Source: Vicinamibacterales bacterium (lineage in GTDB: Bacteria; Acidobacteriota; Vicinamibacteria; Vicinamibacterales; UBA2999). Taken from it: a stretch of 64,000 nt of DNA. The DNA is taken from NCBI GenBank assembly GCA_035537775.1, contig DATLLQ010000230.1, positions 1,845 through 65,844 on the forward strand. The letters run 5' to 3'. The notes under the pieces were generated by a model. The model saw only the letters and a program-made list of their open reading frames with translations, was not told the origin of the DNA and did not search any database. The position numbers and the translations under genes were made by a program. The first letter of the stretch is position 1. Each line of letters opens with the position of its first letter. Below, piece after piece: positions 1 to 28,508 of this stretch.

Positions 1-909
1 CTGAACCAGGGATGCGATCGCTTCAACGCGGCCGTCGACGTCCGGTCGTGCAATCAGCAGTTCCTCGACTACAACCATCCGGACTACCACTTCTACTCGT
101 ACGTTGCGCCCAACGATCCGCGCCTGCCTGGCGGCGGCGGATACCGGGTCACAGGGCTCAACACAGGCGCCAGAACGCAGTCCGCGACCGGCCCTCAGGT
201 GCAAACGTTCATGGAAGAACGGAGCAGCACCTGGCATGGCATCGACACCAACTTCGTGTGGCGCGGACCGCGTGGGCTCAGACTCAACGGCGGGACGAGC
301 TCGGGATACAGCAACCTGAACACGTGCTATGCCGCGCTTGACAATCCGGACGTGCGGGGAAGGGATGGAGACTACCGCGGCGGGTGCGACAGCGTGAATC
401 CGTGGAACACGCGAATCAACGGTACCGTCGCCTTCGTGATTCCCTGGATCGATGTCCTCGCGAGCGGAGTCTTCCAGGGGTTCCGTGGAGTGGCACGCTC
501 GGCCAACGTGCAGGACGTCCACAAGAGCCAGGTGACCTGGGAGCCCAGCAGCACGTCCCGGCTGAACGATCTGTGCACGGGCACGGTTGCGGTGGAGGGC
601 CGCGGCTGCTTCGGTGTCGACCGAAACGCGGCGACAGCGGACATCAATGTGCTCATGCCCAACGAGCTCTTCGGCGAACGCATCATGCTGTTCGACCTCA
701 AGCTCGCGAAGAACATCCGGTTCAAGAATCGCCGCGTGACGGTCGGGGTGGACGTCTTCAACGTGTTCAACTCCGACGCGATCAGCGCCTATAACAACAC
801 CTACATCCTCCCGGAGAATCTCGCTGCGGGCGAGGAGAATCCCTGGGGCACGCCGACCGCCCTCGTGAGCCCCCGGTTCGCACAGTTCTCGCTGCAGTTC
901 GACTTTTAG
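1..909 (+). CDS. TonB-dependent outer-membrane receptor, C-terminal part (5' end lies outside the window)
   Basis: Frame 1 is open from base 1 to the TAG at 907-909, so the listed 199..909 ORF is only the tail of a longer gene. The sequence is beta-barrel-like and ends ...SPRFAQFSLQFDF, with the terminal Phe typical of OM barrels. Confidence 0.7.
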   Translation: MNQGCDRFNAAVDVRSCNQQFLDYNHPDYHFYSYVAPNDPRLPGGGGYRVTGLNTGARTQSATGPQVQTFMEERSSTWHGIDTNFVWRGPRGLRLNGGTSSGYSNLNTCYAALDNPDVRGRDGDYRGGCDSVNPWNTRINGTVAFVIPWIDVLASGVFQGFRGVARSANVQDVHKSQVTWEPSSTSRLNDLCTGTVAVEGRGCFGVDRNAATADINVLMPNELFGERIMLFDLKLAKNIRFKNRRVTVGVDVFNVFNSDAISAYNNTYILPENLAAGEENPWGTPTALVSPRFAQFSLQFDF

Positions 910-971
910 AGGTAAAGGACGCCGCCGAGGCGAATCCGATCACGCCCGCGCGATAACCGAATCGCGCGGGC
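861..971 (+). repeat. Direct repeat copy A: last 16 codons and stop of the receptor gene plus the downstream hairpin
   Basis: The 111 nt starting cctcgtgagcccccggttcgcacagttctcgctgcagttcgactttta... recur at 3081..3191, exactly 2220 bp downstream, with about 6 mismatches. Confidence 0.95.
945..970 (+). terminator. GC-rich hairpin downstream of the receptor gene
   Basis: 10-bp perfect stem cccgcgcgat / atcgcgcggg with loop aaccga. There is no T-tract, so a rho-independent function is only inferred. Confidence 0.45.
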
Positions 972-1122
972 GGTACCATCCTTCGCAGATGACCCCCCGC
1001 AAAGGAATCCATTCCTAGAGATCTTTTGAGCCTGTAACAAAACCCGCTCGTTGTCGCGACGGCGCCCGTGCAAGGATCCCTTGGAGGCGTCGCGATGAGA
1101 GACAGCGAAGCCCGAGGCCCAC

Positions 1123-2706
1123 GTGCACAAGCCCGATGATGGCTACGGTGGGGCTGCTCGCCGTCGAGAGCGGGTGCTCTTCGAGCTGGCCAAGCGCAAC
1201 AAGGCCGATGTCGCCGAGACGTTCCGCGCCATCACCGAGGCGACCGCGGTCGCCCTCGACGTCGAGCGGACCAGCATCTGGCGGTTGACCCCCGGCGGAA
1301 ATGCGATCGTGTGTGAGGACAACTTCGTTCGCGGCCAAGGTCATACAGCCGGAGAAATCCTGTGGGCGCGTGACTACCCGAGCTATTTTTGCGCCATCGC
1401 CGAAAACCGTGTCATTGCGGCGCACGAGGCGCGCACCGACGACCGCACCTGCGAGCTGAACATGGATTATCTCCAGGTGCACGGCATCACGTCGATGATG
1501 GACGTGCCCATCTGGCAGAAGGGGCGGCCCTACGGGGTGCTGTGTCATGAGCACGTCGGACCCACACGGCGTTGGACGAGCGACGACGAGACCTTCGCCG
1601 CCAACCTGGCCGACCTGGCGTCGCTTGCGCTCGAGGAGGGCGAGGGGCGCAAGGCGGAGCAACGTTGGAACGCGGTGGTGAATACCATCCAAGAGGCGGT
1701 GTTCGTCTTGGACGGCGAAGGGACCATCGTGCAGACCAACCCGTTGGCGGCACGCATGATCGAGCACGCCGGCGGGGGCGTCACCCTGGCCGAACGGATG
1801 GAGCTGGTCGAGTTCCGGGACGAGCAGGGGCGCGTGATCCCGGCCGATCGGACGGGCGGAAGGCGTTCGTTGAGGGGCGAGGTCGTTCGGGAGATCAACC
1901 ACCTGGTCTTCAAACGCACGGGCGAGCGAAGGTCCTATCGCATCACAAGCGCGCCGATGCGGGACGGGGATCACATTGCCAGCGTCGTGGTGGTGCTGGC
2001 GGACGTGACCGAGGAGGTGGCCTTCGATCGTCTGAAGCGCGAAGTGTTGGCCGCGCTGGCGCACGAGTTCAAGACGCCGGTCGCGATCGTCAAGGGATAC
2101 GCCCAACACATGAGCAAGCAGCCCGACGCCAACCCGTCGGAGCGTCCGATGGTGGCTGCCATCGAGCGCGCGTCGAACCGGCTGCAGAGGCTGATCGACG
2201 ATTTGGTCGAAGTGTCGGGCATCTCGATTGGGCGGCTGGTGCTCTACCGAGAGCCGGTCGAGCTCACCGCAATGCTGTGTTCGGTGGCGCACTGGGCAGC
2301 GCCGATGGCGACTCACCACCGGCTGGTCGTGAACGCGCCTGAGGAATTGGCTGTGTCCGCGGATCGCCCCCGCCTGGAGCAGGCCGTCCGCCGGCTCGTG
2401 GACAATGCGATTCGGTATTCACCTCCCGGCGGCGAGGTCGAAATCGCCGTCGCGCCGTCGGGCAATGACGTCGTGATTTCGGTTCGCGACCGAGGCATCG
2501 GAATTCCGGCGGATCAACAGAACCGCATCTTCGAGCTGTTTTTTCGCGCCCACGCCGGGACTCCACACGACGTCGGGGGCCTCGGGATCGGGCTCTTCAT
2601 GGCACGCGAGATCGCGGTCCGTCACGGCGGAGCGATGTGGTTCGAGAGCGAGGAAGGAAAGGGCAGCACGTTCTACATGCGCCTTCCTCGTACGGAGGTG
2701 CTGTGA
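1123..2706 (+). CDS. Sensor histidine kinase (GAF-PAS-HisKA-HATPase_c), cytoplasmic
   Basis: GAF-like N-terminal half and a PAS-like segment (WNAVVNTIQEAVFVLDGEG). H-box LAHEFKTPVAIV. ATPase boxes DNAIRYSPPGG, DRGIGIP and GGLGIGLFMA. The GTG start at 1123 is uncertain. Confidence 0.9.
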   Translation: MHKPDDGYGGAARRRERVLFELAKRNKADVAETFRAITEATAVALDVERTSIWRLTPGGNAIVCEDNFVRGQGHTAGEILWARDYPSYFCAIAENRVIAAHEARTDDRTCELNMDYLQVHGITSMMDVPIWQKGRPYGVLCHEHVGPTRRWTSDDETFAANLADLASLALEEGEGRKAEQRWNAVVNTIQEAVFVLDGEGTIVQTNPLAARMIEHAGGGVTLAERMELVEFRDEQGRVIPADRTGGRRSLRGEVVREINHLVFKRTGERRSYRITSAPMRDGDHIASVVVVLADVTEEVAFDRLKREVLAALAHEFKTPVAIVKGYAQHMSKQPDANPSERPMVAAIERASNRLQRLIDDLVEVSGISIGRLVLYREPVELTAMLCSVAHWAAPMATHHRLVVNAPEELAVSADRPRLEQAVRRLVDNAIRYSPPGGEVEIAVAPSGNDVVISVRDRGIGIPADQQNRIFELFFRAHAGTPHDVGGLGIGLFMAREIAVRHGGAMWFESEEGKGSTFYMRLPRTEVL

Positions 2707-3074
2707 AGAGCGCGGGCGGGATTCTCATCGTCGATGACGACCCCGATCTGCGCGAGTTCCTCCGGCTCATGCTCACGTCGATGGGCTTCGAGGTGACCAG
2801 CGCGGCGAACGGCCAGGAGGCACTCAACGACATGGAAGGTCACGACCCCGACCTGATCCTCCTCGACATGAAGATGCCTGTCATGGACGGTTGGGAGTTC
2901 TGCCGCGTCCTCGAGGGTCGCGACTCGCGCCCTCCCATCGTTGTGCTGACCGCCGCTCCCGATCCAGCCGGCCGAGCCGCCGAGGTGCACGCCGAGGGCT
3001 GGCTCGGCAAGCCGTTCGAATACGCCGACCTGGAAGCGATCGTGCGCAGGTTCGCGAAGAGCCCTGCGCGATGA
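2703..3074 (+). CDS. Single-domain response regulator (receiver only)
   Basis: Receiver motifs ILIVDDDPD, DLILLDMKMPVMDG, VVLTA and GWLGKP. The GTG at 2703 overlaps the kinase stop (GTGA). I prefer it to the listed start at 2637, which lies inside the kinase gene. Confidence 0.88.
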   Translation: MKSAGGILIVDDDPDLREFLRLMLTSMGFEVTSAANGQEALNDMEGHDPDLILLDMKMPVMDGWEFCRVLEGRDSRPPIVVLTAAPDPAGRAAEVHAEGWLGKPFEYADLEAIVRRFAKSPAR

Positions 3075-3080
3075 CTCGGG

Positions 3081-3191
3081 CCTCGTGAGCCCCCGGTTCG
3101 CACAGTTCTCGCTGCAGTTCGACTTTTAAGAGTAAAGGACGCGGCCGAGGCGAATCGGATCACGCCCGCGCGATACCCGAATCGCGCGGGC
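3081..3191 (+). repeat. Direct repeat copy B: relic of the receptor 3' end plus hairpin
   Basis: About 95% identical to 861..971. It keeps the in-frame remnant LVSPRFAQFSLQFDF but with TAA instead of TAG. It starts 6 nt after the response-regulator stop. Confidence 0.95.
3165..3190. terminator. Second copy of the GC-rich hairpin, between convergent genes
   Basis: cccgcgcgat-acccga-atcgcgcggg. It lies between the regulator stop (3074) and the minus-strand porin stop (3205). Confidence 0.45.
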
Positions 3192-3204
3192 CTCTCAAAA
3201 GCGT

Positions 3205-4245
3205 CTAGAACTCGATAAGGGTCTGGGCCTGCAGCCTGCGTGAGAGCAGCTGGGAGCTGGCCGATCCGTACTCCTGCACGAGCGACACCACGACACCAAA
3301 TCGTCCAGTGCCCGCCTCAGTCCAGTGCGCGCCGCCGAAGAGGTAGCGTCGTCTCGTGTCGTTGTCGATGGACACATCCGGAACGAAAACATCCAGGCCG
3401 AAGATTCCGGCCCAGCCGGTGGGACCTTGCCGGCCCTCGCCGAAGAACGACAGGCCGCGCCGTTTGACGTCCACGGCCACGAACGGGTTGTCGGTGGCGG
3501 ACAGATACTGAACCGTCCCGAGGAGCCGTTCGTTCTCGTAGCTGCCCATCACGATCGCCACGTTGCGGGGTCGATCCTTGGCGTACCAGCCGTACTGGTA
3601 GAAGCCTGAGATGGTGACCTTGCCCAGCTCGCTGTCATCAGAGAACGGGCGAAACGTCGCGCGGCCGTCGATGCTCTTGTACTTGTCGAGTTCGGCGCGT
3701 CCGTACCCTTCGCCGTTGTAGACACCCACATGCACCTGCGTACGTTCACCGGTCACCTTGACGCTCGCACCGAGGTCGGTCGCCCCGGGGATCAGCGCCA
3801 GCCGCTCGGCGAACAAGGGACCGAGCACACGATATCGATTGACCGACTCCTCGAAGGTGAGCCAGGGCGTCTCGTGCAGGCCGAACATCACCTGGGTCCT
3901 CTCGGTCGCCTGTACGTCGAGCGAGGCGTATTCGAGTCGCAGCGCGAGGTTTCGGTCGAGACTGGCGTCGGTGATCGGCCGCACGTCCGGAACGAACCGG
4001 ACTCCCACGCGGTCGGTCAGCTGCGCGTGGATCTTGAAGTACCCGCGCGTGAGGTCGAACGCGTTGTAGCCGTCCTGCTCGTGCAGCTCGGCGGCGTACT
4101 CCAGGAAGGAGACGACCCCGAAGCTCACTCTGGGGAACTCACTGGCCACCGGTGGATCTGCCGGCGGTGGATCCTGAGCGAGCGCCGGCGCCGCCAGACC
4201 AACGACAAGAATCGCAGACAGAGAGAGTCGTTTCATCGTGTTCAC
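3205..4245 (-). CDS. Outer-membrane beta-barrel (porin-like) protein
   Basis: Signal peptide MKRLSLSAILVVGLAAPALA/QD and amphipathic strand-like sequence (VYNGEGYG). The C-terminus is ...QTLIEF. It starts 6 bp after the DUF1501 stop. Confidence 0.55.
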   Translation of the reverse strand: MNTMKRLSLSAILVVGLAAPALAQDPPPADPPVASEFPRVSFGVVSFLEYAAELHEQDGYNAFDLTRGYFKIHAQLTDRVGVRFVPDVRPITDASLDRNLALRLEYASLDVQATERTQVMFGLHETPWLTFEESVNRYRVLGPLFAERLALIPGATDLGASVKVTGERTQVHVGVYNGEGYGRAELDKYKSIDGRATFRPFSDDSELGKVTISGFYQYGWYAKDRPRNVAIVMGSYENERLLGTVQYLSATDNPFVAVDVKRRGLSFFGEGRQGPTGWAGIFGLDVFVPDVSIDNDTRRRYLFGGAHWTEAGTGRFGVVVSLVQEYGSASSQLLSRRLQAQTLIEF

Positions 4246-4251
4246 CGTGTG

Positions 4252-5508
4252 TCAGAAGATGGCCGGCGAACCGGCACGAAAGTCACCGCCCAAAATCGGC
4301 ACTGAGTTCACGCCGAACCATTGATCCAGCAGACTGGCGTACACGGACCGGAAGTCGGTTTCATGGCGCACGTCCCCGGAGTTGTTTTCCAGCGTCGGAT
4401 GGCCCGGAGCAAGCGAGGCCGCTGTCCCATAGAGCCCGCCCCGCACCGAGCCGCCGAGCGCCATCATCAGACCGCCGGCGCCGTGATCGGTACCCGCGCT
4501 GCCGTTCTCGGAGATACGCCGGCCGAACTCGGAGAACACAATCACGGTCGTATCGCTCGCGAGGCCCTGGTTGCGGATGTCGCTGTAGAACGCCCACAGG
4601 CCATCGCCGAGCGTGCCCATCAGGTTGGCGTAACCCCCACCGCCTCCGCCGCCCTGCCCCGCATGCGTGTCGTAGCCACCGGTGGACAACCAGAACACTC
4701 GTGAGCCGATTCCGCGGGCGATGGCGCCTGCCACCGTCCGCAAGGCCAACCCGAAGCCATTGTTCGGATACGCGATCGTTGGGGTGTACGCCGTGGCCTG
4801 CGCCACGCGGTCGAGCGTCTCGAGCGCACCCAGATTGCAGCTGTTCACCAGGGCCAGGTGAGGCCGCCCTGGCGCCGGTGACGATGCCATGGTCTGCGCG
4901 GCGACGCGCTCCTGCAGCGCAACCGCGCCGCGGTTCGGGCTGGCAAACGTATAGGTGTTTGCGTTGGGAATCGCGGGTACCCCGCTTGTGCCCGAAAGAA
5001 GAGCCCGCGGTGTTTCTCCCGTTGTATTCCACGCCGCCAGCGAGTCCAGCGGCCGTGGGAGCGTGTCGAGATATCGGCCGAGCCAGCCCGACCCGGTCGT
5101 CGACTGCGGGTTGGCGGTGCCATAGATGTCGGTGGCCTCGAAGTGCGACCGGCTCGAGTTCTGGTAGCCCGTACGCTGCACGAGCGCCAGGCGCCCCTCG
5201 TTGAAAATATTCGCGAGGCCGCCAAGGCGCGGGTGCAGCCCCAGCGCCTGTCCGGCGGCGTCAGTGCCCACCTGCAGTACCTGCCCCGCAGGCACGGCAA
5301 TCGACGGCCGGCGGCTGTAGTAGGCCGGGTCCCGATAGGAGACCAGCGTATTCAGCGCATCGTTGCCACCGCCCAGATAGACAACGACGAGGCGTCGCGA
5401 CGGGTTGCCCTGAGCGTGCGCGATCGCGCTCAGGAACGAGGGCGCGGCAATCCCGAGCGTGACGGTGGCAACGCCGTGGCGGATAAAGAGTCGTCGTGAG
5501 ATGGCCAT
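4252..5508 (-). CDS. DUF1501 family protein (sulfatase-fold, Tat-exported)
   Basis: Twin-arginine N-terminus MAISRRLFIRHGVATVTLG. Motifs GGNDALN, GGYDTH and FSEFGRR...GTDHG. The ATG at 5508 is preceded by GGAAGGGA. The listed ORF runs on to 5997 only because no stop intervenes. Confidence 0.85.
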   Translation of the reverse strand: MAISRRLFIRHGVATVTLGIAAPSFLSAIAHAQGNPSRRLVVVYLGGGNDALNTLVSYRDPAYYSRRPSIAVPAGQVLQVGTDAAGQALGLHPRLGGLANIFNEGRLALVQRTGYQNSSRSHFEATDIYGTANPQSTTGSGWLGRYLDTLPRPLDSLAAWNTTGETPRALLSGTSGVPAIPNANTYTFASPNRGAVALQERVAAQTMASSPAPGRPHLALVNSCNLGALETLDRVAQATAYTPTIAYPNNGFGLALRTVAGAIARGIGSRVFWLSTGGYDTHAGQGGGGGGGYANLMGTLGDGLWAFYSDIRNQGLASDTTVIVFSEFGRRISENGSAGTDHGAGGLMMALGGSVRGGLYGTAASLAPGHPTLENNSGDVRHETDFRSVYASLLDQWFGVNSVPILGGDFRAGSPAIF

Positions 5509-5519
5509 GGCGTCCCTTC

Positions 5520-6992
5520 CTAAACGAGTTGGTATTCGGAGGAACCGACGAGGAGACGCGCCAGACCCGAGGCTCTCGTGTTGAGCTGCTCGCCGCCCCC
5601 GTTCCAAACGCCAGCCGCGAACAGGTAGGTCATCAGCGCCTCCGCCGGGACCGTATCGAGGGGCGCCGGCGTCACGCGCTCCAGCATCGCGTTGAACAAC
5701 GCCTGCGGCGTCTGGCTCTTCGGCTTGAGCGAAGCACCAAGGAATTCCCGCTGGCTCGACGCCAGCGTGGCGGCGAAGTGGGTCCGGGCCAGCATCGTCC
5801 CCGTTGAAATCCATCCGGCGCCGAGCGGCCATCCGCCTACGTTCGGTGGCTCGAAGAGCTGCTGCCCCATGTTGGCCAGCGGCGACCGCATCCTGTCCAG
5901 CATCAGGTTCTGCCAGCCGACTTCTCTGATCGCGCGCACGACGTATTCCACTGGCCACGAATAGCGCGCGTAGTGCGCCGAGGGATCGGTGAACCACGGC
6001 GAATTGAGCACGAACTGCAGGACGGGTCTGATGTCGGTTCCACGCTGCAGGTAGACCGCGGCTGCGCTGTCGATGAACGTCGGATCCGGCGGCTGAATCT
6101 CGCTGACGAAGAAGTGCCAGAACTTGCGAGCGAGCCGACGGGCAGTTTCCGGATGGAACGCCAGGGCGGTGATGAGGTCGATGCCGTCCTGGATTCCTTC
6201 GGCCTCGCCGCGTTCCGGGATGGTGTGGCTGCCGTTGGCGTAGATCGGGAACGAAAACGTCTTGGCGCCGGTGTCGTGCCGCTCGGGGTTGTAGACGAAC
6301 TCCTGATACGAGTTCACGTCCCCGTAGTCGTCGCGGCGGTAGTCGGAGGACCCGCGCAGGTTCCAGCCGGTGAACACCCGCGCGGCAGCATAGACGTCCT
6401 GCTCGGTGTAGTAGTCGACGCCGACCGTGAACAGCTCCATCACCTCACGGCCGAAGTTCTCCTGCGGCTTCGCTTTGGAGTTGCTCTGTCCGTCGAGCCA
6501 CACCAGCATCGCGGGATCCTTCGCCACCTCCAGGAGGAGGTCGCGATAGTTGCCGACCGCGTATTGACGGAAGAGCTCGATCTGCCCCTGCGGTCCGCGC
6601 AGCACACCTCGCTTGTGGGCGAGCATCTTCGTGGCCTGCACCTCGCCTGAATCTGCAACCAGCTTGCTGTAGGCCGTGGCGAAGTGGTTGTGCCAGAACA
6701 ACGCCATCTTTTCCTGCAGCGGCCGCCGTGTATGAATCATGCGGAACAGCCATCGCTGGCGCGCGGAGTCGATGTCGATGTCGGGCGCGAACAGTTCCTT
6801 CGTCGTCGCCACCTGCGCGTGGTCGCGCCGTCCGATGCGCGCATCGACGTCGTCGGGCCGGCCCTCGTAGTTGACGAGATACTCGACCGCCTCGCTCGTC
6901 GACATGTCACGAAAGGTGTCGGCGTCCGCCGCGCTGACGCCGAACCCGGCACGACGAAGCAGATGATCGATGTCGGGATTGAGCTGAGCCAC
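5520..6992 (-). CDS. DUF1800 family protein
   Basis: N-terminal HLLRRAGFG motif, a length of about 490 aa, and a position directly upstream of a DUF1501 gene, which is the usual pairing. Confidence 0.85.
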   Translation of the reverse strand: MAQLNPDIDHLLRRAGFGVSAADADTFRDMSTSEAVEYLVNYEGRPDDVDARIGRRDHAQVATTKELFAPDIDIDSARQRWLFRMIHTRRPLQEKMALFWHNHFATAYSKLVADSGEVQATKMLAHKRGVLRGPQGQIELFRQYAVGNYRDLLLEVAKDPAMLVWLDGQSNSKAKPQENFGREVMELFTVGVDYYTEQDVYAAARVFTGWNLRGSSDYRRDDYGDVNSYQEFVYNPERHDTGAKTFSFPIYANGSHTIPERGEAEGIQDGIDLITALAFHPETARRLARKFWHFFVSEIQPPDPTFIDSAAAVYLQRGTDIRPVLQFVLNSPWFTDPSAHYARYSWPVEYVVRAIREVGWQNLMLDRMRSPLANMGQQLFEPPNVGGWPLGAGWISTGTMLARTHFAATLASSQREFLGASLKPKSQTPQALFNAMLERVTPAPLDTVPAEALMTYLFAAGVWNGGGEQLNTRASGLARLLVGSSEYQLV

Positions 6993-6998
6993 GGCAGA

Positions 6999-7496
6999 TC
7001 AGATCGCGATGGTCACGACGTCATTGGCAAACGTGCTGGAGTACTGACGCAGATTCGCCATCGCCGGCCCGCCGATGACCCGTCCGTCACGGGCGTAGCG
7101 CGATCCGTGGCACGGACAGACGTAGTCGTTTCCCTGAGCACCCGTGATGGTGCAGCCCTCGTGGGTGCAGACGGCATCGATCGCCGTGAATGTGCTCGCG
7201 CTCGTCCGCGCGATGAGAAACACGCCCGCTGTCGATTCGACGAGTGCTGCGTCACCCGCGTTGGCCAATGCGGCTCCGAGCGTGACGCGCACGCTGGAAC
7301 CTACCAACTGGCCCGCCAGAACGGTGAGCGTTGAAGTCCCGCCGCCCGGGGACGTCGGCGATCCGCCGCATGCGGAGAGCAGCGTCACCAGCGTGGCGCC
7401 GGAGGCAACTTGGCATGCTCCTGCGCAGAACTGACGTCGTGAGACCGATCCGCTCCTGTCTGACATCGGGGTTTTCTCGCGGGGGAGGCGAGCCAT
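6999..7496 (-). CDS. Rieske [2Fe-2S] domain protein, probably Tat-exported
   Basis: Rieske boxes CTHEGC and CPCHGSRY. N-terminus SRRQFCAGACQVASGATLV. It ends 6 bp upstream of the DUF1800 gene. Confidence 0.85.
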   Translation of the reverse strand: MARLPREKTPMSDRSGSVSRRQFCAGACQVASGATLVTLLSACGGSPTSPGGGTSTLTVLAGQLVGSSVRVTLGAALANAGDAALVESTAGVFLIARTSASTFTAIDAVCTHEGCTITGAQGNDYVCPCHGSRYARDGRVIGGPAMANLRQYSSTFANDVVTIAI

Positions 7497-7648
7497 GAGT
7501 GCGCAATATCAGGGCCACTCGCAAACGACCCCGTTTTGTCGTGTCGGCGATACCCGACGGGGCTCCCGTCGATCACATACTGCGATAGACGACAGGCGAT
7601 TTCGTAACGAGCGGCGTTCGCGGCGATCACCCGCGCGCGAGCCCCGAA

Positions 7649-9388
7649 TCAGTTGGACCGCAACTCGCCGACGGTGCGGACCGGCGCGCCGACCAGAGGG
7701 TGCGCATATCTGATCACGGGCATCAGCGGCGTCACCGCAAACGGAACCTTCTCGCGAACCGACACCAGCGGCACGGCGGGCGAGCGATCGAGTGCCACCC
7801 TGCCGCTCCACGGATCGACGACGAGCCGCGCACCGAGCTGCAGCGCGGCAATCTGTTCGAGGTTGTCCTTCATCAGCGGCGGGGCCTGCTTCATGAGATC
7901 GGCAAGCCGAGTCATCTGCGCGTTGGCCGCCATGTAATCGCCGATGTGCGGCTGGATGAGCCGAGGCAACTGCTTGGCGTGCTCCGAGAGCGCGCGAAGA
8001 AACAGGCCGGCGTCCGCCAGCTTGTCGTGATAGGGGGACTTGCCGAGCAGCTCGATGGTCTTCTCGTCAGCCGCGGCCTCCTCTTTTTGCGTGCGGCGGA
8101 ATCGCAGCGCCGGCAGCAGCTCGCCATCGGGCACCATCAGACGATCGGCAAACGAGAACTTCGTGTCGATCAACTGGTGGCCGAGCGCCACGTGGCTCAA
8201 CTCGTGCGCGAGCATCGTCGCGAGGCTCGCTTCGTCCGGCAGCACGTCGATGAGACCGCGGCTCAACACGATCGTGCGGCCGACCGTGAACGACTCGAGC
8301 GGCGAGGTCAGCAGGATCCGTGAGTGCAGCGGCCGTTCGAGGTTCACGTTGTTGGTCACCACGAGGTTGTTGAGGACGGTCTCGAGGACCTTGTCCGCTT
8401 CGCCCGCCGGCGCGAGGAGGCCGATCGCCTCGAGCCGCTCGAGGACGTTTGCCTCGGCTTCCTGCTCCCACCGACGCTGGCTGAGCACAGGCGACAGCTG
8501 CGCGGCCCCGTCGGCGGAGTCGGCAACATGAGGCTCGTCAATCCGGATCGTCGTCAACGAGCCGGTCCGGTCGGTGGTTTGCGCCTGGTATCCCCAGATT
8601 CGAGTCTGGCTCTTGAACCGCGCCTGCTGCTTCGAGCTGGAGGACTTCTTGGAGGATGTGCCGTTCAGATCCGTTTCTTCCGAGTAGACGTACGACGGCA
8701 CCCACACGCCGGGCGCGACGTTCACACGCCAGCCGTCCATATGGAACGACAGCGTCCGCTTGAACACGCCTGACAACATCTTTTCCGATCCGCGGCTGGC
8801 GCCGTTGAAGCGAACGAGGTTGTAGTCGCGATCCTCGATCCAGATACGGCCGACAAAACCCTGCCTGCCGTCGCGGAGTGGCCTGACGTCGAAGACAAAG
8901 CAGCGCGATTCGCCGAGGAACTCCCGGCGGACGTACGTGAACTCGTACCGCTTTCGGTCGAGCACGCGCCAGTCGGGGGCCACCATCGCGGCGAAGGCAT
9001 CGCCCAGGCGGGGCGGGCTTGCCGCGAGGCGCAGCTTCACGCCGGGCTCTTCCCTCACACCGAACGGACGCAGTGTCGGCCCGTCATCGAACTGAAGTTG
9101 GCCGAGGAAGTAGTTGTCGTCGATCGGAACCCAGCCGCGGGCCTCGTCGGGCGCCACATTCTGAATGTAGACCTCCATCAACGGGTGGGAGGCCCTCAAC
9201 CGCTCGAGGACCGCTCGTTCCGCCCTGTTCATCCGGTCGATGATGTCGTTGGCTGCAACCTGTCCTGCGCGGCCAGGTGTCTGTGCCGCTGGAGCTTTCT
9301 GATCGTTGGCCTGCGCGCTGGCGATCGACGCTGTCATGGCGGGCGCGAGCAATGCAGCAAGCAGCAACGGAAGACGTACAAATCGCAT
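7649..9388 (-). CDS. Secreted M48-like zinc metallopeptidase
   Basis: Signal peptide MRFVRLPLLLAALLAPAMTASIASAQA. Zinc motif LAHELSHVALGH (HExxH). It starts 12 bp after the tonB stop. Confidence 0.72.
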   Translation of the reverse strand: MRFVRLPLLLAALLAPAMTASIASAQANDQKAPAAQTPGRAGQVAANDIIDRMNRAERAVLERLRASHPLMEVYIQNVAPDEARGWVPIDDNYFLGQLQFDDGPTLRPFGVREEPGVKLRLAASPPRLGDAFAAMVAPDWRVLDRKRYEFTYVRREFLGESRCFVFDVRPLRDGRQGFVGRIWIEDRDYNLVRFNGASRGSEKMLSGVFKRTLSFHMDGWRVNVAPGVWVPSYVYSEETDLNGTSSKKSSSSKQQARFKSQTRIWGYQAQTTDRTGSLTTIRIDEPHVADSADGAAQLSPVLSQRRWEQEAEANVLERLEAIGLLAPAGEADKVLETVLNNLVVTNNVNLERPLHSRILLTSPLESFTVGRTIVLSRGLIDVLPDEASLATMLAHELSHVALGHQLIDTKFSFADRLMVPDGELLPALRFRRTQKEEAAADEKTIELLGKSPYHDKLADAGLFLRALSEHAKQLPRLIQPHIGDYMAANAQMTRLADLMKQAPPLMKDNLEQIAALQLGARLVVDPWSGRVALDRSPAVPLVSVREKVPFAVTPLMPVIRYAHPLVGAPVRTVGELRSN

Positions 9389-9400
9389 AGGTGCCTCTGA

Positions 9401-10321
9401 CTAGGACAAGCGGAATGTGATGTGAACCGTGACGCGGGAATCGATCGGCCGGCCGTCGGACTGCGCGGGCTTGAAGCGAATGCGGAGTGCCGCCCGCTCG
9501 GCCGCTTCGTCGAGGCCGTGGCCGAGCCCGCGGACGACGCGCAGCACGCGGACCTCGCCGGCGGCGGTGAATTCGAGCTCGAGCGACACAGTGCCCTCGA
9601 TGCGGGCGCTGCGCGCTTCGTCGGTGTACTCCGGCGTCGGTTTGAAGAGGATCTCGACCGGCCGTTCGATCGGCTTCGGTGCCGCAGCGGAAGGCTGGGC
9701 GGACGCACTCGCTCGTTGATCGAACCCGGCCGTCTGCACCTCGCCGTTTGCGACTTTACGCGTCGCAGGCGCCTCGCTGCCGAATCCACCTGTCTTGACG
9801 GCGCCGATTGCTGCGTCGCGCGGCGAGACCGCCGCAGTTCCGAATCCGCCGGTCGTGACGCCCGCCGCGGCCTGGCTCGCTCGCGCGCTGCTTGTTCGCT
9901 CGAACAGCCCGGTCTCAGGAGGACGCTGGATCGCTGGCTTTTCGATCGGCCGCTCGACCGCCGCCGGTACGAGCGGTGCCGGCGCCCGATCGACCACCTT
10001 GGCAACGACTGGTGCGACGGGAAGCGGCTTCGGCATTTCCGCTCTGGCTGGTTCGCGCACCGGCCGCGCCGGGGCCGGCAGGGCAGCAAGGCGCGGCGCC
10101 ACGACTCGGGCCGGCGGCAGCTTCACCAATGCAGTCGCCGGCATGATGAACACCACCCTCGATCGCTTGTGCGGCGCCGGCGGTTTCTCAAACGCACGAA
10201 TCGGGACGACGATCAGGACGACCGCGACAACGGCGTGCAACGCGACACTGAGCCACAGGCCGGTGCTCGAACGGCCGGGCGCGGGCGTGCTCAATCGTGC
10301 GTCGTCGAACAGAACTGGCAT
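9401..10321 (-). CDS. tonB: TonB family energy transducer
   Basis: N-terminal TM helix (GLWLSVALHAVVAVVLIVV), a Pro/Ala-rich spacer, and a C-terminal TonB_C-like domain (PEYTDEARSARIEGTVSLELEF...VHITFRLS). Confidence 0.85.
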   Translation of the reverse strand: MPVLFDDARLSTPAPGRSSTGLWLSVALHAVVAVVLIVVPIRAFEKPPAPHKRSRVVFIMPATALVKLPPARVVAPRLAALPAPARPVREPARAEMPKPLPVAPVVAKVVDRAPAPLVPAAVERPIEKPAIQRPPETGLFERTSSARASQAAAGVTTGGFGTAAVSPRDAAIGAVKTGGFGSEAPATRKVANGEVQTAGFDQRASASAQPSAAAPKPIERPVEILFKPTPEYTDEARSARIEGTVSLELEFTAAGEVRVLRVVRGLGHGLDEAAERAALRIRFKPAQSDGRPIDSRVTVHITFRLS

Positions 10322-11968: not shown

Positions 11969-13429
11969 TCATGGCAGTTGTGATTCCGCTCGGATGTCGT
12001 TCTCCCACACTGCGCTGTGCTGAGTCCGATTTTGGGCGGTGCGCGGCAATTCGATTACGAACTGTGCGCCCCTTCCGGGCCCTGCACTCGTGGCACACAC
12101 GGTCCCACCGTGCAATTCAACGAGATGACGAACGATCGCGAGACCCAGTCCCATCCCGCCGGTGCCCCTTCCCGGTTTGCCCTGCCGGAATCGCTCGAAT
12201 ACGTGCGGAAGGAACTCGGAATCGATTCCGACTCCCGTGTCGGCGACTTCCATGCGGAAGGAGTGGGAGGTATCCGTCAGCGACACCGTGACATGGCCGC
12301 CAGCGGGCGTGAACTTGATGGCATTCGCAAGCAGGTTCCACGCGACCTGCTTGAGGCGTACGGCGTCACCGCGGACCATTGAGTGGCCGTTACCGACTGT
12401 CGCGCGCGTGAGCCCGACCCCCTTGTTGTCGGCGCTTAGCCGCACGGCGTCAACGGCTTGCTGAATCACGTCATCCAGATTCACCTCGCCGATCGACAAG
12501 CGCATGCGTCCGGCGACGAGCTGGTTCGTGTCGATGAGGTCATCCACCAGCTGGCGCAACGAATCGGCGTTACGAGCGATGGCACCGATCGCCGATGAGA
12601 CGCGCTCGGGTTTGATCGCGTTCTCCTCGAGCATGCGCGACCAGCCGGCAATCGTGTTCGTTGGTGTCCGGAGCTCGTGCGAAATAACCGCTGCAAACTC
12701 ATCTTTCAGCCGAAGAGTCTCCAGAAGCTCCGACTGCTTGCGCTCAAGTGCCTCGGTCGACCGGCGCCGATCGGCCGTAAATCGCATCGTGACAACAAAC
12801 AGCACGCAGACCGAGACCAGCCCGAGCCCAATGCCGACGATGCGCGTCATCTGCGCGTCCCGATAGTCGCGATCTGCTGCGTCCGTTCGCGCGCGCAGTC
12901 GCGCGCTCTCGCGTGCCTCCATCCGGGCAACCACGACCCGCATGTCGTCCATCAACGTCTTGCCGAGGTGTTTCGCCACCTCGGCTTGTGCATCGCCAAA
13001 GGTGCCGTCGCGGCGCAGCGTGATCACCGACTCGAGTTCGGCAAGCTTGCGATCCGCGAGCGCCTTCAGACGCTCATAGTCCGCCTGTTGGTCGGGGTCG
13101 TCTGCCATCAACCTGCGCATCTGCGCCAGGTTCGAGTCGATGGCTTCACGTGCGCGAGTGTAGGGGTCGAGGTACGAGGGATTATTCGTGATGACATAGC
13201 CACGCTCGCCGGTTTCAGCGTCCAGGAGAGTGGCCAGCACCTGGTCGAGTGCCACTCGCGTCTGATAGGCAAGCTCGATCGATTCGTGTGTGCGGTAGAG
13301 GCTTTGAACGCTTCGGAATCCGAGGACGACCGTTGCGATAAGCACAATCACCGCAGCGATGAAGGCAGCCATCACGCCGGGAGTCAGGTGCTGCCGCAGC
13401 AGCGTCGACGCGTGTTCGCGCTCCCTCAT
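11969..13429 (-). CDS. CHASE3-domain sensor histidine kinase
   Basis: TM helix, then a CHASE3-like periplasmic region (LLDAETGERGYVITNNPSYLDPY) and a second TM helix. H-box ISHELRTPTNTIAGW. ATPase boxes NLLANAIKFTPAGG, DTGVGI and GMGLGLAIV. Confidence 0.85.
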   Translation of the reverse strand: MREREHASTLLRQHLTPGVMAAFIAAVIVLIATVVLGFRSVQSLYRTHESIELAYQTRVALDQVLATLLDAETGERGYVITNNPSYLDPYTRAREAIDSNLAQMRRLMADDPDQQADYERLKALADRKLAELESVITLRRDGTFGDAQAEVAKHLGKTLMDDMRVVVARMEARESARLRARTDAADRDYRDAQMTRIVGIGLGLVSVCVLFVVTMRFTADRRRSTEALERKQSELLETLRLKDEFAAVISHELRTPTNTIAGWSRMLEENAIKPERVSSAIGAIARNADSLRQLVDDLIDTNQLVAGRMRLSIGEVNLDDVIQQAVDAVRLSADNKGVGLTRATVGNGHSMVRGDAVRLKQVAWNLLANAIKFTPAGGHVTVSLTDTSHSFRMEVADTGVGIDSEFLPHVFERFRQGKPGRGTGGMGLGLAIVRHLVELHGGTVCATSAGPGRGAQFVIELPRTAQNRTQHSAVWENDIRAESQLP

Positions 13430-13456: not shown

Positions 13457-14590
13457 TTACTTCCGCGCGGGTTGCTGATACTCCGGTGCGAGCTCCTTGC
13501 AGGCCTCGACCTTGAACGGCGCGTCCGCCGGCAGGACGCTATCGGTATCCACGTACTTGTCCGCGAAGTAGTCGGAATCGTCGGCGACGATGTTGCGGGT
13601 GAGCTCGAGCGTTGTGGGATTCAGCGTGAAGCGCTCGACGACGTGCAGCTTGTTGCTGTGAGGGAGATTCCCTGCCAGGCTACCTGGCAAGAAGCCGACG
13701 GTGTCGACCACCAGCGTGTCGCCGTCCCAGCGGCCTATCGAATGACCGGCGCGGCTCGGCTTGATGTTCGCCGGGTGCGCGGTCATGTTCATCTGCACCA
13801 TCCGGGTCAGGCCGACGCCATATTCCATCTTGATGACGTTCGCGCTCTGCGTGATGCGGCCGATCGCGCCGTCGAACACCCAGTCGAACAGGATGCTCGT
13901 GGGCTGGCAGGAGAGCCGCGGGTTCTCCGACGTCGGCCGCTTGCGCAGCGCGTCTGCTGCCGCCTGCCCCGCTGCGGTCAACTTCACGGGCGGCGCGAAC
14001 CAACCGGCGGGACCGGCAGGCATCGGCACTTTGCCTTCCCTGATCGCCGCGGCCTGGCTGATTGGGACGAGCCCGGTGCGCCCACGCCCGGGGGGCGGCG
14101 TTGCCAGGACCTGCTGCTCCTGCGCCCAGTCGCCGGCGAGGTTCGGTTTGCCGTTCGACAGCCGGAACGGCCGTTTCGAGCGATTGACGGATTGGGCGTC
14201 GCTCAGCTGCTGATAGCGCTCGAGCGTCGGCTTATTGCCAAGAGTCATCGTCTCCACAGTGCACGCAGTCGGATCGTCGCGATGCGGGTGGCCCGCCACC
14301 TTGATGGTTGCGCCCCGCACGAACATCTCCTGCGACCAACCCGAGCGCCTGAGCACCGTGGCCCCCCGCGTCTCGCATTTCATCCCGATGACCTTGCCGT
14401 CGGTGCCGACGACATCGAAATAGATGTACGTATGCGGGTTGACGAAGTCGACCTTTGTCAGCTTGCCCTCGAGCTCCACGTTCTTCCTGACATCGTAGAG
14501 GCCGGCGCCGTGGTGCGCGGATACGCGTTCGACGAACACCGGTACCGTGAGCACGGTGGCGACGAGTACCGCGTGTGTCACTCTTGTCAT
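13457..14590 (-). CDS. Secreted two-domain protein of unknown function: an N-terminal domain like 28016..28426 fused to a C-terminal domain like 26025..26930 and 30014..31057
   Basis: Signal peptide ending VSA/HH. N-domain HHGAGLYDVRKNVELEGKLTKVDFVNPH. C-domain GKPNLAGDW...SIGRWDGDTLVVDTVGF...HVVERFT. It ends 27 bp upstream of the CHASE3 kinase. Confidence 0.7.
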   Translation of the reverse strand: MTRVTHAVLVATVLTVPVFVERVSAHHGAGLYDVRKNVELEGKLTKVDFVNPHTYIYFDVVGTDGKVIGMKCETRGATVLRRSGWSQEMFVRGATIKVAGHPHRDDPTACTVETMTLGNKPTLERYQQLSDAQSVNRSKRPFRLSNGKPNLAGDWAQEQQVLATPPPGRGRTGLVPISQAAAIREGKVPMPAGPAGWFAPPVKLTAAGQAAADALRKRPTSENPRLSCQPTSILFDWVFDGAIGRITQSANVIKMEYGVGLTRMVQMNMTAHPANIKPSRAGHSIGRWDGDTLVVDTVGFLPGSLAGNLPHSNKLHVVERFTLNPTTLELTRNIVADDSDYFADKYVDTDSVLPADAPFKVEACKELAPEYQQPARK

Positions 14591-25559: not shown

Positions 25560-26024
25560 TTAGAGAACGACATAGGCGAGCAAGCGGCCCGCGGTTACGG
25601 CGCCTGTCCAGGCCAGCACCGACACGATCGCCAGCGTTCTGGCGTTACTGGGAACCTCACCCTCGGCACCGCTCAGCACGTACTTGCGAAGCGGCATCAA
25701 CGTGGCGGCGCCGGCGACGACCAGCGACATCTTGATAAAAAACGGTACGGCGGTCCCCATCGTCGTCGCGGCCTTGATGAAGAGCAGCACGCCGGTCACG
25801 ACATTAACAACGAGGCCGATCGCAATAGCCGGAAAAACCCAGCGGTAGGACGACAAAGGAATCTGCCGGTTGACGCCAAGCAGACGCAGGTCGAGCATCC
25901 AACTGGCGCCGACGAGGACGGCCATCCCTGTGGTGTGAAGGGTGAGGACGGTGGGGAGCGCCCATATCGAAGGCGACTCCCCCAACCAGACTGCTAACGA
26001 CGACGACTCAAGCCAGGAGAGCAC
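25560..26024 (-). CDS. 4-TM membrane protein, unknown function
   Basis: LTLHTTGMAVLVGASWMLDLRLLGVNRQIPL... aligns by eye with HFLGLSLSFGVLLAVNLRILGAMRRIPF... of the next gene. Its GTG start directly abuts the upstream TGA. Confidence 0.7.
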   Translation of the reverse strand: MLSWLESSSLAVWLGESPSIWALPTVLTLHTTGMAVLVGASWMLDLRLLGVNRQIPLSSYRWVFPAIAIGLVVNVVTGVLLFIKAATTMGTAVPFFIKMSLVVAGAATLMPLRKYVLSGAEGEVPSNARTLAIVSVLAWTGAVTAGRLLAYVVL

Positions 26025-28015: not shown

Positions 28016-28426
28016 TTAGTCCGTGCCGTCGCCAAAGAAGAGAAGAATGTTCTTGTCGCCGAGCTGGAGGTTTCTGATGAATCCAGCCGGGTTGCCGTTG
28101 CGCGCTGGAAGGACCGTTACCTTCAGGAGCTCGCCGGGCTTCATCGAGGTCTTGTTGATGCCCTCGCGGGTCAGCGTCTGGACGGAGGCAGTGGTGAGAA
28201 TCCAGTCAACCACCTTGCCCTTGATCTTCTTGTCCGGCACGGAGAGCTCGATGTTCGCGTGCGGATTCACAAAGTTCAACTTCTTGAGCCGTCCCTCGAG
28301 GACGATCTCCTTATTCAGGTCGTACACGCCCGCTACGGCATGATGGGCCTGCAGGACGGCGCCGGTGTACATGATGCCGGCCGCGAGGAATCCACACAGT
28401 ACGAGTCGAGCGGTTCGTGAGCTCAT
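28016..28426 (-). CDS. Small secreted protein (resembles what I recall as DUF6152; unverified)
   Basis: The ATG at 28426 has GGAG 8 nt upstream. The signal peptide ends LQA/HH. Motif HHAVAGVYDLNKEIVLEGRLKKLNFVNPH is shared with the N-domain of 13457..14590. Confidence 0.7.
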   Translation of the reverse strand: MSSRTARLVLCGFLAAGIMYTGAVLQAHHAVAGVYDLNKEIVLEGRLKKLNFVNPHANIELSVPDKKIKGKVVDWILTTASVQTLTREGINKTSMKPGELLKVTVLPARNGNPAGFIRNLQLGDKNILLFFGDGTD

Positions 28427-28508
28427 GGTTTTACTCCAATAGTGATAGCCGCCGGATAGTAGCAAGAGCCACCCCGGGCCGCAAGGCTACCACTCCCCGA
28501 AATTATTA

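Follow-up and report, generated by a model that had tools for sequence, protein, structure and literature searches.

The direct repeats around a kinase-regulator pair in a Vicinamibacterales bacterium are most likely a duplication scar

Results

We analysed a 64-kb stretch of DNA (the window, 64,000 nt) from a Vicinamibacterales bacterium, an acidobacterium of soil that has not been cultured. Its plus strand begins with the 3' part of a receptor-like gene (1..909), which encodes a CarboxypepD_reg outer-membrane protein of 1177 aa and ends in the stop codon TAG at 907-909; the complete gene was found at 5612-9145 of contig L001. The name TonB-dependent receptor, used in the initial annotation, is not a family assignment that curated thresholds give. 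Only the N-terminal CarboxypepD_reg domain passed them, the Plug domain (PF07715) and the TonB_dep_Rec barrel did not rise above them, and the score against TIGR01785 was 15 bits with a cut-off of 317. OMP_b-brl_4 is present in homologues at about 52% identity, and Plug in one of them; the label is a plausible one.

The receptor module is followed by a lineage-specific 74-nt spacer (972..1045, plus strand) with no match in receptor or kinase relatives, and then by a conserved leader (1046..1122, plus strand) shared with the related loci L104 and L106. Downstream of this leader, a histidine kinase gene (1123..2706, plus strand; 527 aa, GAF-PAS-HisKA-HATPase_c in Pfam) adjoins the gene of a receiver-only response regulator (2703..3074, plus strand; 123 aa), whose start overlaps the kinase stop (GTGA). 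The HisKA and HATPase_c domains next to a receiver-domain protein identify a two-component pair, and the two genes stay together in L104, L105 and L106. On the minus strand, convergent with the regulator, lies the gene of a putative outer-membrane protein of 343 aa (3205..4236), which closes a conserved Rieske-DUF1800-DUF1501 operon. This gene had been labelled a porin, a name for which domain searches returned no family match, and we refer to it as porin-like.

A repeat search of the window returned a single family, with two copies of 111 nt spaced 2220 nt apart. RA (861-971, plus strand) comprises the last 15 codons of the receptor gene, its stop codon and a 63-nt 3'UTR. RB (3081-3191, plus strand) is an orphan, non-coding copy of RA that starts 6 nt past the regulator stop at 3072-3074. 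Both read LVSPRFAQFSLQFDF followed by a stop, which is TAG in RA and TAA in RB. The copies are identical at 105 of 111 positions (94.6%), and the six mismatches (909, 910, 911, 923, 937 and 956) all lie 3' of the 48-nt coding part. These results uphold the initial annotation on the position, spacing and roughly 95% identity of the copies, on the receptor 3' end in each, and on the 6-nt distance from the regulator; the domain search likewise agrees that the interval between them holds only the kinase and the regulator.

Each half of the repeat occurs in the window only at the RA and RB sites, where shuffled sequences are expected to give none. RA and RB were recovered with the identical six differences in three independent ENA assemblies (L001-L003), and the same arrangement and differences were seen in at least ten independent metagenome assemblies of the Vicinamibacterales species. 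Chance and assembly artefact were both rejected on these grounds. In every informative contig with an identical porin-like gene (ENA and three JGI studies), RB adjoins the regulator, and across all assemblies compared RB is invariant and the arrangement fixed. Samples that contain the species include ENA ERZ27256789/794/939/969/970 and JGI 3300031858, 3300033550 and 3300004463. RB was also rejected as coding sequence: its LVSPRF... frame lacks a start codon and lies at +1 to that of the regulator, nothing 5' of codon -15 is present, and no open reading frame enters it. Extra conservation of its 48 'coding' bases, which hold none of the six differences, was non-significant after outgroup polarisation (about 4 private RB events, p ~0.1).

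To establish which copy is the source, we compared the locus with its relatives. In L089, L090-93 and L101 the receptor gene stands in other neighbourhoods, and nucleotide homology to the window extends through the gene and ends at 971/972, the end of the hairpin. By this homology, the receptor gene module naturally finishes with R, the repeated sequence; there is no break between RA and the receptor reading frame or its orthologues, and RB is, on the same alignments, an orphan and 5'-truncated copy. RA and RB share the derived A908, A914 and FDF ending, where L004, L089, L090 and L101 have TGA/GTGAAGG, and on these characters the two are sister alleles. The TAA stop of RB is intermediate between the outgroup TGA and the TAG of RA, and outgroup comparison placed more private changes in RB (about 4) than in RA.

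Both copies end in a strong, perfectly paired GC hairpin. Hairpin A (943..972, plus strand) has a 12-bp stem (943-954/961-972), a 6-nt loop and no U-tract, and hairpin B (3164..3191, plus strand) has a perfect 11-bp stem (3164-3174/3181-3191); the 10-bp stem previously assigned to both copies needs correcting. The predicted RNA folding energies were -26.6 and -23.7 kcal/mol, respectively. Hairpin B ends 13 nt from the stop codon of the porin-like gene and 117 nt past that of the regulator. Neither hairpin is followed by a T-run and a terminator scan listed neither copy, so that neither qualifies as an intrinsic (Rho-independent) terminator. The stem of hairpin A is invariant among 6 alleles, and a covariation test of the 3'UTR was therefore uninformative. 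A search for known RNA families in 600-3500 gave a single match, at the chance level (E = 0.86). In the relatives L086 and L010, unrelated GC hairpins lie directly 3' of the stop codon of the porin-like gene.

The flanks of RB were then inspected, and an 8-nt direct repeat, CGGGCCTC, was found on both sides, with one further occurrence in the 64 kb. Its left copy (3077..3084, plus strand) joins CGGG of the regulator-module tail to CCTC, which corresponds to RA 861-864; its right copy (3187..3194, plus strand) joins CGGGC, corresponding to RA 967-971, to CTC outside RB. The repeat is thus made up of 4 nt common with the left end of RA and 5 nt common with its right end, which gives microhomology at both RB junctions, and the part for which RA is the sole possible source is 3085-3186, a copy of 865-966. 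The kinase-regulator module is homologous to L104, L105 and L106 as far as 3081, and the regulator tail TGACTCGGGC matches TGACTCCGGC of L104; therefore CGGG(C) belongs to the regulator side. In a simulation that retained RB and sampled its flanks at random across the window, 0.3% of 200,000 trials produced a repeat of 8 nt or more across the junctions (p ~0.003), a moderate value from a test designed post hoc, after inspection of the sequence.

Finally, we searched for an empty site, a donor, a recombinase and a foreign signature. Pfam scans of about 40 open reading frames in the window found no recombinase, transposase or reverse transcriptase, in agreement with the initial annotation on the recombinase, and the precomputed domains of the 8 kb upstream in L001 contained none of these either. 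None of ten places with an identical porin-like gene had an empty-site allele; all informative contigs among them carry RB and the regulator. The synteny search covered the porin operon in 80 JGI loci, L085 (JGI contig Ga0226660_0078879) and L086, the receptor in five contexts and the kinase-regulator pair in three. No linkage of the three modules is seen in these more distant relatives, and since the neighbours of each one differ from lineage to lineage, no ancestral state could be read. The adjacency of regulator and porin-like gene was found in no other lineage compared, and its age relative to RB therefore rests on the logic of the junctions. The deduced uninterrupted site GATGACTCGGGCCTCTCAAAAGCG (regulator, 20 nt, porin-like gene) was absent from the 116 loci examined, and a donor-type adjacency of receptor, R, kinase and regulator was absent from the three kinase-regulator and five receptor contexts. 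GC content is uniform (0.62-0.68 throughout), and the best outside homologues of the kinase, receptor and porin-like gene are 90-91%, 90% and 91% identical, respectively. By composition and divergence, the kinase-regulator pair looks native. The initial annotation had named a lack of empty-site alleles together with concordant divergence as what would count against its reading, and within the species this is what we found. In the literature, we found no relevant description of an equivalent arrangement in Vicinamibacteria.

Discussion

With R as the receptor module's own 3' end, RB as an orphan copy and CGGGCCTC on either flank of it, RB looks like a piece pasted into an existing spacer. We consider it probable that RB arose in situ as a secondary copy of the receptor 3' end, inserted by microhomology-mediated illegitimate recombination into a pre-existing 20-nt spacer between regulator and porin-like gene, and that the kinase-regulator pair is no mobile insert and lay there beforehand. 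The spacer would earlier have read ...GATGACT(CGGGC)(CTC)TCAAAAGCGT-CTA, ending in the stop codon of the porin-like gene, and the model implies a junction GATGACTCGGGCCTCTCAAAAGCGTCTAGAAC in which the regulator and this gene meet without RB.

Two routes would lead there. In a single step, synthesis through CGGGCCTC would jump template to CCTC at 861-864, copy RA through the entire palindrome and, at CGGGC 967-971, the last bases of the hairpin, return to CGGGC of the spacer; the return switch would re-copy CTC and so leave the 8-nt duplication. In two steps, 861-3080 would be duplicated in tandem (2220 bp, with the join at CCTC), after which a 2110-bp deletion between two CGGGC motifs would take out the second kinase-regulator copy. 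The two versions give the same product and are indistinguishable here. As a consequence, a strong hairpin would now stand between two convergent transcription units, in a place where relatives have unrelated hairpins of their own, and for this reason the RB insertion may have been kept, to serve as a terminator or to stabilise RNA.

The closest known kind of event is microhomology-mediated templated insertion, which includes palindrome template switching, SPDIR in Acinetobacter baylyi, MMBIR/FoSTeS-type events and NHEJ filler DNA. As in those cases, an ectopic stretch of the same genome would have been copied to a new site at microhomologies (4 + 5 nt), the neighbourhood encodes no dedicated enzyme, and a palindrome lies at one switch point. 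SPDIR, in which ectopic single strands integrate during replication where there is microhomology, has been described as a mutation mechanism of bacteria (bioRxiv 10.1101/2023.11.22.568220); the patch here, about 105 nt, is long in comparison with the SPDIR microindels described. The locus also differs in that its microhomologies lie in crossed target order, so that 8 nt of the target were duplicated and nothing was replaced, and the mechanism is deduced from one fixed natural event. The junctions also fit a tandem duplication with partial deletion, with 3080|861 exactly as expected from a 2220-bp duplication via CCTC and 3191|3192 as from a deletion between CGGGC motifs, but that route needs two rare illegitimate events, and no intermediate with two kinase-regulator copies was seen.

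An alternative, which we consider unlikely, starts from an ancestor with the order receptor, R, porin operon, into which R and the kinase-regulator pair entered through one homologous crossover, either in R or in the receptor gene, and one illegitimate join at 3080/3081. The incoming fragment or circle would come from a strain in which R and the pair are adjacent, RB would be the recipient's original terminator, and the event would be a Campbell-type integration or homology-facilitated illegitimate recombination (HFIR), an established mechanism (PMC3240628). The geometry of an insert between two R copies fits, and so does the right end of RB, which is the natural end of the receptor module. 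L085, the closest porin-operon relative, has the same receptor gene at most 7 kb from that operon, and L004 shows homologous exchange with a breakpoint inside R. However, the match of 7 bases beside RB that makes up the CGGGCCTC duplication would have to be accidental (the p ~0.003 above), and neither a donor in the three kinase-regulator and five receptor contexts, nor an empty site in the ten places, nor a recombinase or foreign signature was found. HFIR shares the single short-microhomology junction beside a homologous region but usually inserts foreign DNA and deletes recipient DNA and does not predict the 8-nt duplication; a donor arrangement is not known for this locus. Integrase-borne genomic islands that restore the target 3' end (attL/attR) likewise bracket genes with direct repeats of a gene 3' end, here of 111 nt and 94.6% identity. 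Unlike them, this locus has no integrase, empty site or foreign composition, its cargo would be 2.1 kb of native-looking genes, and its right-hand repeat has an 8-nt flanking duplication of its own, which is no product of att recombination. An allele with the junction GACTCGGGCCTCTCAAAAGCG, regulator and porin-like gene without RB, would speak against cassette insertion, which itself implies a receptor 3' end (…GGCACGCCGACCGCCCTCGTGAG…) followed by one R and CTCTCAAAAGCGTCTAG.

The initial annotation had preferred a Campbell-type cassette. Its geometry, contents and alternative of a duplication scar, the class that we favour, stand, but the cassette is not supported, given the missing recombinase, the ten places lacking an empty site, the uniform GC, the equal divergence and the junction duplication borne by RB. 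Judged from these sequence features, a duplication scar is most likely rather than a mobile gene cassette, and the event is a known kind of mutation.

It is quite improbable that RB is the relic of a second receptor paralogue, once situated between regulator and porin operon and reduced by a deletion of about 3.7 kb to its last 48 coding bases and 3'UTR. RB does resemble a receptor module that has lost its 5' part and kept its natural 3' end intact, the receptor family occurs in many contexts, and another CarboxypepD_reg gene lies 3' of the regulator in L104. That gene was rejected as a source of RB, being unrelated to the receptor (no tblastn or blastn match), and the relic would leave the 8-nt duplication unexplained and need more events, with a prior duplication placing a 95%-identical paralogue exactly there.

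RB lacks the 5' part of its source and stops at the final base of a terminator-like hairpin, where the transcript would end; with its 8-nt target duplication and microhomology at both junctions, it has the anatomy of target-primed reverse-transcribed processed pseudogenes. To our knowledge, such pseudogenes are essentially undescribed in bacteria, and an RNA-templated retro-copy of the receptor mRNA 3' end is very improbable.

An origin of R as a small element, mobile or of REP/MITE type, with a separate insertion at each of the two sites is hardly credible despite its terminal palindrome and 8-nt flanking duplication: in every relative, even in L088, where the hairpin is absent, the first 48 nt of R encode the conserved C-terminal strand of the receptor protein; two copies occur in the window and one per related locus; and a hairpin-pattern scan of 185,579 genomes returned 10 loci, one per genome, with a true R in L101 only, which also rejects the REP-like dispersal that had been raised as a possibility.

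Hairpin-only ('I-shaped') terminators or 3'-end stabilisers occur in GC-rich bacteria. The hairpin here resembles them: its perfect 11-12 bp GC stem lies directly past a stop codon, varies less than the coding sequence does and forms whichever strand is read; it has no U-tract, and its terminator role is a prediction from sequence. With RB pasted into the spacer, two convergent operons that had been 20 nt apart apparently receive a hairpin from the patch. On a further, improbable reading, the duplicated 3'UTR would make the kinase-regulator and receptor mRNAs alike at their 3' ends, and read-through from the porin operon would produce antisense RNA; if so, this RNA would match the receptor mRNA perfectly over 48 nt, and the expression of three units would be coupled.

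These findings indicate that an insert between two copies of a gene 3' end need not signal a mobile cassette, and that the flanks of each copy can reveal which piece was inserted. As a natural example of a templated patch, here of about 105 nt and with its switch point where a palindrome ends, the locus is a clean one, and it is fixed in the natural population of this uncultured soil acidobacterium. The 111-nt direct repeats expose the kinase-regulator pair to RecA-mediated loss or amplification.

The repeat and the genes it flanks

A repeat search revealed one long direct repeat in the window, a 111-nt unit (R) at 861-971 (RA) and 3081-3191 (RB) with a spacing of 2220. Each half of R was found at these two places only within 64 kb, with none expected by chance. 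The copies differ by six mismatches (909, 910, 911, 923, 937 and 956) and are identical over the first 48 nt, coding for LVSPRFAQFSLQFDF and the stop. RA closes the receptor-gene ORF (+ strand), which is already open at the window start and runs to TAG at 907-909. A perfect GC hairpin ends each copy, with a 12-bp stem in RA and an 11-bp stem in RB (RNA folding energies of -26.6 and -23.7 kcal/mol, respectively). The copies enclose two genes, for a GAF-PAS-HisKA-HATPase kinase (1123-2706) and a receiver-only regulator (2703-3074). Together with ORF and domain annotation, the search confirmed that the repeat flanks this pair, as initially annotated, and that 6 nt separate the regulator stop from RB. 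RB ends 13 nt from the stop of a convergent 343-aa porin-like gene (3205-4236, - strand), the last gene of a Rieske-DUF1800-DUF1501 operon.

The repeat unit and the receptor gene

The full receptor gene, recovered from an assembly of the same species (L001, 5612-9145), encodes 1177 aa. Because no domain other than the N-terminal CarboxypepD_reg reaches curated thresholds, the earlier label of TonB-dependent receptor is plausible yet unproven. Receptor relatives with 85-90% nucleotide identity occupy quite different neighbourhoods: between an MFS transporter and a beta-lactamase in L088, between PadR and DUF3738 in L089, between a hypothetical gene and DUF3738-DsbA in L090-L093, before tRNA-Cys in L101, and after ThuA in L085. 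In L089, L090-L093 and L101, homology to the window covers the gene and a 63-nt 3'UTR and ends at 971/972, the hairpin end, indicating that R is the natural 3' end of the receptor module. RB is an orphan copy: nothing of the gene before codon -15 is present in it, and no ORF reading into it was found. The receptor 3'UTR is better conserved than the coding sequence; its hairpin is invariant, is not followed by a U-tract and probably serves as a hairpin-type terminator or a stabiliser of the 3' end.

At several receptor loci, homology starts about 190 nt ahead of the start codon, at a conserved motif resembling a promoter (TTGACAA-N17-TATAGGT). Bounded by this motif and the hairpin end, the receptor gene behaves like a unit of about 3.8 kb running from promoter to hairpin (L001 5397-9208; window up to 972), and at least five distinct neighbourhoods contain it; paralogy, gene transfer or heavy rearrangement may account for this. 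A scan of 185,579 genomes for the hairpin pattern GCCCGCGCGAT-N6-ATCGCGCGGGC matched ten loci, each in a different genome, which ruled out a REP-like element; L101 was the sole true R among the ten.

Conservation and age of the two copies

In the source species, an uncultured Vicinamibacterales bacterium (Acidobacteriota), RA and RB with the same six differences were present in three independent ENA assemblies (98.7-99.7% identical). Among ten places encoding an identical porin-like protein, every informative contig (three JGI studies among their sources) carried RB and then the regulator, with RB invariant, and no empty site was seen. This recurrence demonstrates that the arrangement is real and fixed in this species.

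Outgroup alleles (L004, L089, L090 and L101) read TGA AGG TGA AGG after the last codon. Both RA and RB carry derived A908, A914 and an FDF ending, indicating on these shared states that they are sister copies. RB retains TAA, intermediate between TGA and the TAG of RA, and has about four private events versus one or two in RA, which would fit a relaxed copy of an earlier RA state, older than present within-species diversity. The differences all lie in the UTR part, a bias that is not significant once they are polarised (p about 0.1).

Strains of the species are nearly identical outside patches of 4-13% divergence with sharp boundaries (741-929 against L004, 1765-2400 against L111, 8400-8900 against L108 and L002), a pattern characteristic of homologous exchange. 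One breakpoint falls within RA, immediately ahead of the hairpin; L004 differs from the window at 24 positions in 741-929 and five in 930-3091. Contig L112 (ENA ERZ27256969 k141_976000) ends at window 3129, the first base telling RB from RA. The assembler probably broke the contig on the repeat; a variant co-occurring in the sample is another possible reading.

The kinase-regulator pair and the porin operon

The kinase and regulator are conserved as a pair in L104, L105 and L106 (86-91% amino-acid identity), among which their neighbours differ. Nucleotide homology spans 1046-3081 (1131-3081 in L105) and ends at the first base of RB; past the regulator stop, L104 reads TGACTCCGGC followed by AATCG, versus TGACTCGGGC followed by CTCGTG in the window. 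GC content is uniform across the window, and the nearest outside homologues lie at the same distance (90-91%) for kinase, receptor and porin-like gene. About 40 window ORFs and the upstream region in L001 yielded no recombinase, as initially stated, and neither a transposase nor a reverse transcriptase. The pair bears no mark of a foreign or mobile insert. Its orthologues in L105 (8981-12164) and L104 (10714-13550) again adjoin TonB-system or outer-membrane genes, with TonB_C directly upstream and tRNA-Phe downstream in L105 and a CarboxypepD_reg gene directly downstream in L104, which hints at a functional link with TonB-dependent uptake.

Conservation of the porin operon extends to 80 JGI loci, L085 and L086, with homology ending at the porin stop codon and a different downstream neighbour each time. 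The wider - strand block (3205-9388 and 9401-10321; TonB_C, M48-like peptidase, Rieske, DUF1800, DUF1501 and the 343-aa protein) recurs at over 80 loci of Vicinamibacterales. No Pfam or NCBIfam family matched the 343-aa putative outer-membrane protein, and the 3' end of its gene is a recurrent synteny breakpoint, since the gene downstream differs in nearly every lineage. Further along, the window encodes another histidine kinase, this one of CHASE3 type, together with repeated DUF6152/DUF6644 genes (11969-13429, 13457-14590, 25560-26024 and 28016-28465, - strand). DUF6644 pairs also adjoin the receptor relative in L088, and L089 has a DUF6152 gene.

Origin of RB

An 8-nt direct repeat, CGGGCCTC, flanks RB (3077-3084 and 3187-3194) and was seen just once more in 64 kb. 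In the left copy, CGGG is the regulator-module tail, outside RB, and CCTC matches RA 861-864; in the right copy, CGGGC matches RA 967-971, the hairpin's last bases, and CTC lies outside RB. Removing one 8-nt repeat and the intervening 102 nt leaves the regulator stop, CTCGGGCCTCTCAAAAGCGT and the porin stop, giving a simple deduced earlier state in which two convergent genes would lie 20 nt apart. In a simulation of 200,000 trials that retained RB and took its flanks at random from the window, 0.3% produced a repeat of 8 nt or more across the junctions.

A duplication scar, named as an alternative in the initial annotation, is the class of explanation that fits, and the 8-nt repeat is predicted by both of its routes. 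A double template switch would leave at CCTC and return at CGGGC after copying the palindrome; alternatively, a 2220-bp tandem duplication joined at CCTC would be followed by a 2110-bp deletion between two CGGGC motifs. Its mechanism is of a kind already known, microhomology-mediated templated insertion, and can be compared with SPDIR (bioRxiv 10.1101/2023.11.22.568220).

Insertion of the pair as a cassette, through homologous plus illegitimate crossover (HFIR, PMC3240628) or the initially preferred Campbell integration, is unlikely. In its favour, the right end of RB is a natural module end, receptor and porin operon lie at most 7 kb apart in L085, and L004 shows homologous exchange with its breakpoint inside RA. 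However, if RB were the ancestral receptor terminator, the 8-nt repeat would not be predicted and could only be coincidental, and no donor-type or recipient-type arrangement was seen among the loci compared. With no recombinase, no empty site and a native-looking pair, the integrated-cassette reading is unsupported. That RB is the relic of a deleted paralogue is improbable, as this too would not predict the flanking repeat. An RNA-templated retro-copy, though compatible with the anatomy, is very doubtful, and a mobile R is highly improbable.

Putative role of RB

The general interest of the duplication scar is low unless RB arose from an RNA template or the shared 3'UTR acts in regulation, and the chance of this is small. 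Relatives carry unrelated GC hairpins of their own immediately downstream of the porin-like gene, and in this lineage no hairpin other than that of RB separates the convergent regulator and porin genes. RB may thus have been kept as a putative insulator of the two transcription units.
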